A DNA stretch of 37,501 nt from a virus (lineage: Duplodnaviria; Heunggongvirae; Uroviricota; Caudoviricetes): IMG/VR virus record IMGVR_UViG_2526164690_000052. One strand, written 5' to 3'. The position numbers were made by a program, and so were the translations under genes. The notes below the pieces were generated by a model. It was not told the origin of the DNA, ran no database searches, and saw only the letters and a list, made by a program, of their open reading frames with translations. Below, in pieces: positions 17,944 through 19,959 of this stretch. The first letter of the stretch is position 1. Each line of letters opens with the position of its first letter.

Positions 17944-18085
17944 CCAACCCACATGGGGAAACCTCGGAATATGGGGCGACCGCCTTCTGGATGCACTGGA
18001 AACCTGTAACGCGGATAAACGGGCCATTGCTGAACTGGATAAGAGAATAGCCGAACTGACACACCAGACGGGAGTAACACAATGA
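17774..18085 (+). CDS. Outer-membrane lipoprotein spanin (Rz1/LysC-like), overlapping the i-spanin in another frame
   Basis: lipobox LLTGC after hydrophobic segment; Pro-rich mature region; embedded/overlapping arrangement typical of Rz/Rz1; start GTG 17774 or ATG 17804. Confidence 0.55.
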   Translation: MNSYATILQKMNAPTLCLTLVLLTGCAGTQNAPRPAPSVRLIPQTLTMPVTPPPFPDQPTWGNLGIWGDRLLDALETCNADKRAIAELDKRIAELTHQTGVTQ

Positions 18086-19959
18086 CCAGTAAGAACTTTG
18101 CACTGATTACAGCCATGACACAGGCTGAACTGACTCAAAAGGTGAATGAACATCTTGCGAAAGGGTGGCATCTTCAGGGGGAGACGCGGGTTGCCTACGA
18201 ACCCGGCACCCCGTGGTATCTAATGCAGGCAATGGTGGCCGATGGCACTACAGACATCTCACCTGATTCCCCCCAGCACGGCAGCGTGCCGGAGTGGTAT
18301 TACGTGGTGGTACTTGCTGGTCAATCCAATGCCATGTCATATGGTGAGGGAATGCCGCTGCCGGATTCTTACGATGCGCCCCACCCACGCATTAAGCAAC
18401 TGGCCCGTCGCAACACAGTGACTCCCGGTGGTAAAGCATGCGCATTTAACGACATCATTCCGGCAGATCACTGCCTGCATGATGTTCAGGATATGAGCGC
18501 ACTGAATCACCCGAATGCAGACCTGAGCAAAGGGCAGTATGGCTGTGTCGGACAGGGCTTGCATATTGCCAAACGCCTGTTGCCTTACATTCCACAGAAT
18601 GCCGGGATTTTACTGGTTCCATGCTGTCGTGGTGGTTCGGCATTCACCCAGGGCGCGGAGGGGACATTCAGCGAGTCCACAGGAGCCAGTCAGGATTCGG
18701 CTCGCTGGGGTGTGGGTAAACCTTTATATCAGGACCTGATTTTGCGCACGAAGGCCGCATTGCAGAAAAACCCAAAAAACATGCTGCTGGCCGTATGCTG
18801 GATGCAGGGCGAATTTGACATGAGCGCCGCTACGTACTCACAGCAACCTCCGCTGTTTGCGGCCATGCTGAAACAGTTTCGTGCGGACATTACCGAGTTT
18901 AACACGCAGTGTCATGGAGGCAGAGCGGCAAGTGTGCCATGGATTTGTGGTGACACGACGTATTACTGGAAAAACACCTACGGCACGCAGTACGACACCA
19001 TTTACGGGGCGTACAAAAACAGGGAGAGCGACAACGTTTTCTTTGTGCCATTCCTGACCGATGGTAGTGGCAACAATACCTCCACCAACGCACCAACGGA
19101 AGATCCGGATGCTGCAAGTGAGGGATATTACGGTTCGGCATCCCGAACGAACAAAAACTGGGTATCATCAAATCGCCAGACGCATTTCAGTTCATGGGCG
19201 CGCAGGAGCATTATTCCGGATCGTATGGCAACCGCTATTCTGAACGCAGCCGGGCGCACCTCAGCCTTCATCAGTGGTAAGGCACCGGAAATCAAACCCT
19301 CGCCCGGCGGCAACACGCCATCGGGTCCGTCTGCAGATACGTCCGTTCGCACAATCTCCCTGCTGCCGGCAGCCGGAGAGGCTGCTGCGCAGGGCTGGAG
19401 CATTAAGGATGGCGGAATTCAGTTGTCAGATGGTGTATTTAAGATCACCAAGCAGAGCAATAAAACCTGGTCCCTGACGCATCCGGTGGATGACGCAATT
19501 ACCCTGCTGACACAGGGCGGCAGACTGACCTGTAAGTTCCGCCTGTCAGGCGCACTGACCAACAATCAGTTCGGTCTGGGAATTTATCTGTATACCGATG
19601 TAGCGTTACCTGACGTCGTGGCGATGACCGGGACTGGTAACCCGTTCCTGATGTCGTTCTTCACCCAGACCACAGACGGCAAACTGAATCTGATGCATCA
19701 CAAGAAAGCAGGAAACACAAAGTTGGGCGAGTTCGGGAATTACAGTAACGACTGGCAGACGCTGGAGCTGGTGTTCACCGCCAGCAGTGCCACGGTTACT
19801 CCGAAACTGAATGGAGTGGCTGGCCCGGCATTCCAGGTCATAAAAGACAGTCTGACACTGGGGCTGAATGCACTGACGCTGACGGATATTACCAAAAATG
19901 CAACGTATGGCGTTGAGATAGAAAGTCTGGTGCTGGAAATAAATAGTCCTGCAGCGTAA
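18082..19959 (+). CDS. DUF1737 + SASA/DUF303-type carbohydrate O-acetylesterase (NanS-p-like putative sialate O-acetylesterase)
   Basis: 625 aa; N-terminal about 55-aa domain then VVLAGQSNAMSYGEG (GQSN esterase block); ATG overlaps spanin stop; same architecture and post-lysis position as prophage NanS-p esterases as recalled. Confidence 0.55.
   Translation: MTSKNFALITAMTQAELTQKVNEHLAKGWHLQGETRVAYEPGTPWYLMQAMVADGTTDISPDSPQHGSVPEWYYVVVLAGQSNAMSYGEGMPLPDSYDAPHPRIKQLARRNTVTPGGKACAFNDIIPADHCLHDVQDMSALNHPNADLSKGQYGCVGQGLHIAKRLLPYIPQNAGILLVPCCRGGSAFTQGAEGTFSESTGASQDSARWGVGKPLYQDLILRTKAALQKNPKNMLLAVCWMQGEFDMSAATYSQQPPLFAAMLKQFRADITEFNTQCHGGRAASVPWICGDTTYYWKNTYGTQYDTIYGAYKNRESDNVFFVPFLTDGSGNNTSTNAPTEDPDAASEGYYGSASRTNKNWVSSNRQTHFSSWARRSIIPDRMATAILNAAGRTSAFISGKAPEIKPSPGGNTPSGPSADTSVRTISLLPAAGEAAAQGWSIKDGGIQLSDGVFKITKQSNKTWSLTHPVDDAITLLTQGGRLTCKFRLSGALTNNQFGLGIYLYTDVALPDVVAMTGTGNPFLMSFFTQTTDGKLNLMHHKKAGNTKLGEFGNYSNDWQTLELVFTASSATVTPKLNGVAGPAFQVIKDSLTLGLNALTLTDITKNATYGVEIESLVLEINSPAA

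Follow-up and report, generated by a model that had tools for sequence, protein, structure and literature searches.

A predicted NanS-p-type O-acetylesterase gene in a P2-like prophage, located between its lysis genes and gene R

The esterase gene and its product

The 37,501-nucleotide (nt) stretch of tailed-phage DNA analyzed here (IMG/VR record IMGVR_UViG_2526164690_000052; Caudoviricetes), hereafter called the window, contains a P2-like E. coli prophage of the P88 type (Peduoviridae, Xuanwuvirus). In its late region, the head completion gene L, tail gene X and genes for a holin, an M15 endolysin and an Rz-like spanin are followed by the o-spanin gene lysC, by a gene for a 625-amino-acid (aa) esterase related to the NanS-p enzymes of lambdoid prophages, and by the tail completion gene R. 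An earlier, sequence-only reading had proposed most of this arrangement: a large DUF1737/SASA-type esterase with a GQSN block and a β-rich C-terminus, an ATGA overlap with the stop codon of a spanin gene, a slot between the lysis genes and R in which P2 has no gene, an M15 endolysin, and homology to the lambdoid NanS-p esterases. All these elements were recovered in the present analysis, including the catalytic residues, whose absence from the alignment would have spoken against the assignment. The open reading frame (ORF) of the esterase is not there by chance; it represents an intact, real and conserved gene. Its principal features are as follows.

18082..19959, + strand: predicted NanS-p-type three-domain carbohydrate O-acetylesterase, 625 aa (ORF, Pfam domains, phrog_143)
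18070..18074, + strand: Shine-Dalgarno-like GGGAG within lysC, 7 nt 5' of the esterase ATG; putative ribosome-binding site
18091..18240, + strand, aa 4-53: DUF1737, of a subtype found only in P2-like phages (PF08410, 28.8 bits against a cut-off of 24)
18286..19245, + strand, aa 69-388: SASA/NanS-like SGNH type II esterase domain (phmmer against PDB 3PT5, NanS (YjhS), E = 2.7e-124)
19369..19947, + strand, aa 430-622: C-terminal lectin-like jelly-roll domain, DUF6645 (phmmer against PDB 6YP6, E = 3.2e-31)
18030..20024, no strand assigned: cassette relative to P88 (1995 nt against 93 nt in P88)
19226..19574, + strand: 349-nt tract free of mismatches to the phage 434 allele

The Pfam matches to DUF1737, SASA and DUF6645 all exceed the gathering scores, and PHROG 143 matches the protein end to end (residues 1-624, 1078 bits). 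The SASA match (PF03629; aa 75-271, 44.3 bits, cut-off 24.8) covers profile positions 4-157 of 226 only, while PF20350 (DUF6645) is matched at aa 476-586 with 69.9 bits. The structure 6YP6, which is similar to the C-terminal domain, is the crystallized C-terminal domain of the phi24B "NanS-p". A single-sequence AlphaFold2 model was set aside, given its mean predicted local distance difference test score (pLDDT) of 32.6 and predicted template modeling score (pTM) of 0.24.

Over aa 69-388 the catalytic domain is ~60% identical to the chromosomal NanS (YjhS, PDB 3PT5). NanS consists of the catalytic domain alone, without DUF1737 or a lectin-like domain, and is encoded by a chromosomal gene of the sialic acid regulon. 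It uses Ser19 and His301, its oxyanion hole contains Gln18 and a Gly, and the usual catalytic Asp is missing (as summarized in the part of PMC9063846 that cites Rangarajan et al. 2011). In our alignment Gln18-Ser19 of NanS, the Gln-Ser of the GQSN block, correspond to Gln81-Ser82 (18322-18327) within the block VVLAGQSNAMSYGEG at aa 75-89, and His301 corresponds to His368 (19183-19185). The NanS catalytic set is thereby shown to be retained at the level of aligned residues, with Ser82 as the predicted nucleophile, Gln81 and a Gly as the predicted oxyanion hole, His368 as the predicted base, and no catalytic Asp. The blocks GQSN, CCRGGS, WMQGE and HFSSWARR are kept in every variant examined, and the block around the His reads RQTH here versus RSSH, RASH or RPTH in published alleles.

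As judged from these similarities the esterase is a member of the known NanS-p family, and it is an already deposited protein: the exact sequence is present in NCBI with uninformative labels ("DUF6645/DUF1737 domain-containing protein"), and NCBIfam has no model for it. The literature searched contains no mention of a P2-like carrier, of the slot behind the spanin genes, or of an N-terminal subtype confined to P2-like phages and joined to a body shuffled with lambdoid phages; NanS-p esterases are nearly always treated as cargo of Stx (Shiga toxin) and other lambdoid prophages.

The esterase starts with ATG, and 18082-18085 (ATGA) overlaps the TGA stop codon of lysC (18083-18085). Scans for promoters and terminators around the gene returned fewer matches than shuffled controls and gave no evidence of a private promoter or terminator, and no terminator-like site was found on the + strand between the esterase gene and R. 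A search for the Ogr-box-like pattern TGT-N12-ACA also gave fewer matches than shuffled controls. A weak -35/-10-like site at 18056-18083 was considered as a promoter and dismissed as not above chance. The protein has no N-terminal hydrophobic signal sequence.

Relationship to lambdoid esterases, mosaic structure and distribution

The protein shares 82-83% identity with the SASA esterases of phages JLK-2012 and 434. Its identity to NanS-p of Stx2a phages is 48-50% over 99-100% of the length, and to the NanS-p proteins of Stx phages 48-52% overall. The Stx-phage group includes 933Wp42/L0105 in 933W and vb_24B_21, i.e. gp84, in phi24B; gp85 of phage ST2-8624 served here as a proxy. The protein encoded in the window shares with the Stx-phage NanS-p proteins the order DUF1737-SASA-lectin-like domain, the NanS-type catalytic blocks, full-length assignment to the same PHROG, a location in a prophage late transcription unit adjoining lysis genes, and the lack of a signal peptide. 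It differs from the 933W-type protein to an extent that depends strongly on the domain (21% identity in DUF1737, 67% in SASA, 32% in the second linker and 40% at the C-terminus). The carrier is also different, being a P2-like myovirus instead of a lambdoid phage, with the gene placed between the spanin gene and R instead of between stx/Q and the holin gene S. The closest body is found in phage 434 (CPT_434_71) and in Stx1a/JLK-2012-type phages: compared with 434, identity is 85% in the SASA domain, 100% in the second linker and 92% at the C-terminus, but only 30% in DUF1737, with undetectable similarity at the DNA level. The DUF1737 domains of 434 and of the 933W type are 60% identical to each other. 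To the lambdoid versions, the domain of the window protein is 20-31% identical.

In the lambdoid phages examined the gene lies upstream of the lysis cassette. In 434 it is situated between Q and the holin gene with terminators on both flanks, in one Stx phage of the 933W/phi24B type it stands between the stx locus and the holin gene, and the general lambdoid order is Q-stx-nanS-p-S (Pascal et al. 2023, PMC10462455). This location is a trait of the members known so far, not of the enzyme as such. The suggestion of the sequence-only reading that a position behind the lysis genes mirrors that of the lambdoid NanS-p is therefore not supported. The same is true of its suggestion that the lysis genes and the esterase were acquired together from lambdoid phages: esterase-less P88-like phages have the same lysis cassette with 96% nucleotide identity, and a second P2-like lineage (see below) has the esterase in the same slot together with a lysozyme-type endolysin. 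Moreover, both lambdoid cassettes examined use lysozyme-type endolysins instead of an M15 enzyme, and no lambdoid records were found that share DNA with the lysis part of the window. Arrival of the M15 lysis cassette with the esterase was accordingly rejected, the cassette being native to P88-like phages that lack the esterase. Recent exchange with lambdoid alleles is seen in the esterase body (SASA and C-terminal domains) alone, not in the N-terminal domain.

The N-terminal domain has a strikingly narrow distribution. A tblastn search of 50,697 phage records with the first 72 aa of the protein returned only 3 P88-like records, a homologous-protein search with the same 72 aa returned near-identical fragments only, and a DUF1737 alignment gave no match against one genome per species. 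A HMMER search with the domain against 1.84 billion representative proteins detected about ten relatives; on the metagenome contig that encodes the nearest of them (55% identical), the genes run lysozyme endolysin, Rz, LysC, DUF1737-SASA. Wherever DNA of this DUF1737 was found in complete E. coli genomes, it was joined to lysC. A scan of IMG/VR for this DUF1737 yielded 33 loci, all P2-like, with the esterase directly after lysC and with R as the next gene wherever the locus reaches that far. In these searches the subtype was found only in P2-like phages, to which it seems to be limited. The core pattern K..F....A...L..K....GW..G....Q is common to the domain in the window and to the lambdoid DUF1737, while the loop and strand EPG[TV]PWYLMQAM are invariant among four P2-like variants and differ from both lambdoid types.

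The flanks of the cassette are 96-97% identical to P88 at the nucleotide level: blastn aligned window positions 16500-18029 with 95.8% and 20025-21500 with 97.2% identity, and found no match between them. In P88, which has the same holin, M15 endolysin, Rz, LysC, R and S, the esterase is absent and lysC overlaps R directly. The 93 nt of P88 that are replaced comprise the final 18 codons of lysC and the initial 14 codons of R. Since the cassette includes its own ends of lysC and R, it is not a simple drop-in to the P88 sequence, and the pattern is as expected if the cassette moves between P2-like phages by homologous recombination in the lysC and R flanks. Guanine-plus-cytosine content was uninformative as a sign of foreign origin, being only slightly lower in the gene (51-56%) than in the flanks (55-61%).

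Inside the cassette, positions 18030-18287 (the lysC tail and DUF1737) match neither P88 nor 434, while positions 18288-19959 are 87.6% identical to the 434 gene, with 207 mismatches. The 349-nt tract at 19226..19574 is the longest run free of mismatches, in agreement with a scan of identity in 100-nt steps, and we read it as the probable trace of a recent gene conversion with a lambdoid nanS-p. A mosaic scan of 20 P88-like IMG/VR loci (L006-L031) in 100-nt bins revealed that 17 of the 20 are 99-100% identical over the first ~600 nt, which take in the lysC tail, DUF1737 and the beginning of SASA, that identity falls to 74-91% over the stretch 18497-19600 in about half of them, and that the final ~300 nt are again mostly 94-100% identical. 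From these constant ends and the variable middle it follows that the gene is tied to the P2-like genome at both ends and that its body has been repeatedly swapped from other nanS-p alleles. The DUF1737 module would thus be inherited with the phage, and the body overwritten by recombination with lambdoid nanS-p copies in the same cell. Other nanS-p alleles are abundant: of the 5426 complete E. coli genomes, 2604 were matched by a 3.4-kb query, at a median of 2 places per genome. With its fixed, phage-specific gene ends and shuffled body, the locus clearly exemplifies gene conversion among cargo genes that are paralogous and belong to unrelated prophages sharing a cell.

Among the 5426 complete E. 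coli genomes the arrangement described here was found in 367-373; the junction between lysC and R is occupied in 367 and empty, as in P88, in 689. About 7% of the genomes (367/5426) consequently hold a further NanS-p copy in a P2-like prophage, and counts of nanS-p dosage that depend on annotation or on a lambdoid context could miss it. The carriers include E. coli strains that make Shiga toxin (STEC), of serogroups O26, O103 and O111, and extraintestinal pathogenic E. coli (ExPEC) of sequence type ST131. A complete prophage adjoining yecA in E. coli O26:H11 11368 is 99.8% identical to the window over the 3.4 kb compared, and its counterpart of the esterase gene is ECO26_RS14480, labeled "DUF6645 domain-containing protein" in RefSeq. 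All three GenBank phage records that contain the esterase (ON470599.1, ON470623.1 and PV468777.1) end within the gene, so that complete phage records with it are missing from the phage collection; the truncations probably reflect assembly breaks caused by several nanS-p copies per host.

Of the 33 IMG/VR loci, 26 are P88-like, with capsid proteins 98-100% identical, and 7 (L032-L038) form a second lineage, which is also present in 14 complete E. coli genomes. Megablast of this lineage against the 50,697 phage records gave no match. Compared with the window, its capsid protein is 62% and its large terminase 73-79% identical, and its esterase is 52-65% identical in DUF1737, 65-69% in SASA and 33-35% at the C-terminus. 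As in the window, the esterase occupies the slot between lysC and R, and it shares the DUF1737 subtype and catalytic blocks of the window protein; unlike in the window, the endolysin is of the lysozyme type and the esterase starts 3 nt past the lysC stop codon, without overlap. The C-terminal domain of one member (L035) is closer to the ST2-8624 (phi24B-type) protein than to that of the window (56% versus 38% identity). The presence of the gene in the same slot in two lineages with capsid proteins only 62% identical argues that it is old in P2-like phages. The esterases of the second lineage are 642-656 aa long, and ~400 nt of unassigned sequence, including a 90-aa ORF on the opposite strand, precede R (L035:6600-10900; L032-L038).

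The ratio of nonsynonymous to synonymous substitution rates (dN/dS) lies between 0.08 and 0.14 in DUF1737 and SASA (~0.08 for DUF1737 among P2-like variants) and is well below 1 in all three domains. The esterase ORF is intact in 21 of 25 complete loci. As to the damaged copies, two loci (L020:5019-5876 and L025:7182-8039) carry an in-frame internal deletion (286 aa), joined at an FTQ/TTCACCCAG microhomology, with loss of the His block, and two others (L010 and L026) carry a frameshifted esterase, with ORFs of 218 and 273 aa.

Proposed function and alternatives

We consider it likely that the gene encodes a late-expressed sialate O-acetylesterase released at lysis, i.e. a moron of the NanS-p family in a P2-type late operon. 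Transcription would occur only late after induction, in an operon comprising O N M L X, the lysis genes, the esterase gene and R S, and translation would be coupled to that of lysC. Because the esterase has no signal peptide, it is expected to accumulate in the cytoplasm until the holin, the M15 endolysin and the spanins bring about lysis. Once the enzyme is outside, its SASA domain would strip 9-O-acetyl groups from free 5-N-acetyl-9-O-acetylneuraminic acid (Neu5,9Ac2) or from mucin-bound sialic acids, the C-terminal lectin-like domain would keep the enzyme on glycans, and the sialic acid would become usable for surviving sibling lysogens. The lambdoid NanS-p proteins have been shown experimentally to be active Neu5,9Ac2 and mucin esterases that support the growth of lysogens (review: PMC8065619), and transcription of lambdoid nanS-p rises on induction together with the phage late genes (PMC10462455).

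Several points weigh against this proposal. The substrate specificity attributed to the present allele is extrapolated from homologs that are 48-85% identical to it. The proposed sugar site has four aromatic residues, listed for vb_24B_21 in PMC10462455, of which three stay aromatic here (F497, Y502, F527) and the fourth is replaced by L593. The frameshifts or in-frame deletions in 4 of the 25 complete loci imply that the esterase is dispensable for the phage. Finally, the phi24B homolog is reported to be mainly a processed virion protein (2026 preprint, 10.64898/2026.04.10.717836), and the picture of a released soluble enzyme may therefore be incomplete.

According to the same preprint, DUF1737 of phi24B gp84 is a hexameric capsid-decorating domain, which occupies the central hexon of each face of the T=9 capsid and is anchored by a loop with Tyr42; gp84 processes itself at two places, behind about Gly54-Ser57 (SISSP motif) and ahead of the lectin-like domain (10.64898/2026.04.10.717836). 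In our alignment, which is uncertain in the loop, the capsid "tooth" Tyr42 is opposite Thr43 of the window protein, with W45 and Y46 in the same loop, and Gly55 aligns with Gly54; the linker reads TTDISPDSP, without SSP, and the SISSP processing motif is absent. A role in the virion, which would add to the release of the enzyme at lysis and is compatible with it, not a strict alternative, is possible, if rather doubtful: the P2-type DUF1737 would bind hexons of P2-type capsids, and the progeny would carry, at least transiently, an esterase and a lectin for O-acetylated sialomucin. Besides the phi24B precedent, such docking is suggested by the occurrence of the DUF1737 subtype in P2-like phages only, by the strong purifying selection on the domain (dN/dS ~0.08), by the segment EPG[TV]PWY, which is aligned with the phi24B anchor loop and is invariant in the four P2-like variants, unlike in the lambdoid types, and by the probable co-expression with head genes in one operon, as judged from position. 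P2-type capsids, however, are of the T=7 type and have no hexon on the three-fold axis. The sole site occupied in phi24B is hence not present in them. Nor does the subtype appear simply to track the phage lineage, given that 434 and the 933W-type phages, placed in different GenBank genera, share DUF1737 domains that are 60% identical; a constant 5' module is expected from homology-dependent recombination alone, with lambdoid phages lacking the lysC flank; and three single-domain relatives of DUF1737 (P0016-P0018) are not encoded beside capsid genes and so lend no weight to a general role of the domain on capsids. We regard as unlikely the broader proposal that DUF1737 is an exchangeable capsid-docking module existing in lineage-matched versions, of which the P2-like subtype would tether the esterase and lectin to T=7 capsids. 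If it were true, temperate coliphages of unrelated families would all carry the same mucin-active enzyme on display on the virion, with its body freely swapped among co-resident prophages.

Deacetylation of the bacterial surface is, in our opinion, very unlikely to be the role of the enzyme. This explanation, a possibility raised in the review PMC8065619, holds that O-antigen, capsule or colanic acid is de-O-acetylated at lysis, which would unmask receptors or free the progeny from debris, in the manner of an enzyme that modifies receptors. It gains some interest from an acetyltransferase-like moron in the same prophage (26182-26787, - strand), which is most like EpsC and WcaB, as the addition and removal of acetyl groups might be paired; all these matches are, however, far under the family cut-offs, the esterase is not part of a tail fiber or spike, and its catalytic domain shares ~60% identity with NanS, an enzyme demonstrated to act on 9-O-acetyl sialic acid. 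That the gene is a functionless passenger, kept only by restoring recombination with lambdoid copies and by a harmless position in the operon, strikes us as extremely improbable. The damaged copies in L010, L026, L020 and L025, the 689 genomes that carry the phage type without the esterase gene, and the high frequency of gene conversion could all be explained in this way. They are set against the dN/dS values well below 1 in three domains, among them a DUF1737 for which there is no lambdoid donor, against the invariance of the catalytic blocks across variants that are only 65-69% identical, and against the retention of the same slot in two P2-like lineages with capsid proteins 62% identical. 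Release at lysis as a sialate O-acetylesterase remains the explanation that we prefer. The natural near-isogenic backbones with (367 genomes) and without (689) the esterase provide a convenient test system for two questions, namely whether it is the population of lysogens, the virion or both that profit from the enzyme, and whether DUF1737 is a general capsid-docking domain.

Neighboring genes and other features of the prophage

The P2 gene order around the esterase gene (Q P / O N M L X, lysis genes, R S V W J ...) is evident from Pfam matches to GPL, tail X, GpR and Phage_tail_S; the gpN capsid protein is encoded at 14130-15182. The genes and the signal closest to it are listed below.

16827..17150, + strand: holin of the lambda S-type family (Pfam PF05106 Phage_holin_3_1, 69 bits; labeled phage holin in the near-identical O26:H11 prophage)
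17147..17539, + strand: M15 metallopeptidase endolysin (Pfam Peptidase_M15_4, 45 bits; phrog_465 endolysin, 256 bits)
17536..17943, + strand: putative Rz/LysB-like i-spanin (DUF2570; Pfam match of 20.6 bits, weak and under the cut-off)
17804..18085, + strand (ORF opens at 17774): o-spanin LysC, Rz1-like (Pfam LysC PF23793, 52 bits)
19968..19972, + strand: AGGAG within the 23 nt that separate the esterase stop codon from R; ribosome-binding site of R
19983..20450, + strand: tail completion gene R (Pfam P2_Phage_GpR, 130 bits)
20434..21078, + strand: tail completion/virion morphogenesis gene S (Pfam Phage_tail_S, 98 bits)

The product of 17536..17943 has a hydrophobic N-terminal segment and is annotated as DUF2570 in P88 and in O26:H11 11368. 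For lysC, translation from the ATG at 17804 begins with MNAPTLCLTLVLLTGCAG and includes the lipobox LLTGC, while the RefSeq start in the near-identical prophage corresponds to window position 17897, is not an ATG and omits the lipoprotein signal. The start at 17804, which would give MNAPTLCLTLVLLTGC and a proper lipobox, seems more plausible to us than that of RefSeq. Irrespective of the esterase, the lysis cassette of the whole P88 group is a mixture of types, with an S-type holin, an M15 endolysin and a LysC of the P2 type.

The acetyltransferase-like moron at 26182-26787 (- strand), a hexapeptide-repeat protein of 201 aa, is encoded between the cluster of tail genes and a gene for tail-fiber assembly. 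Its RefSeq label in O26:H11 11368 is "serine O-acetyltransferase", and its best NCBIfam matches are EpsC, CysE and WcaB, all far under the cut-offs. One prophage thus holds both a putative polysaccharide O-acetyltransferase and an O-acetylesterase.

In the early region (7899-9174, + strand) we found a gene for a full-length ParM actin-like segregation protein (Pfam StbA_N and ParM_N), followed by a small gene of a partitioning/stability family, i.e. plasmid-type partition genes inside an integrated P2-like phage. At the right end (~35571-36162, + strand) a gene for an ogr/Delta-like zinc-finger protein is followed by a toxin gene of the Hok/Gef family (RefSeq annotation transferred from O26:H11 11368), and a gene of the YecA family with a SEC-C motif starts at 34144 within the prophage, which is itself located next to yecA. 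Between the integrase gene and a repressor-like helix-turn-helix gene, region 1008-2035 (- strand) encodes a DUF2511 protein and an unannotated 216-aa membrane protein, which are another probable moron pair.

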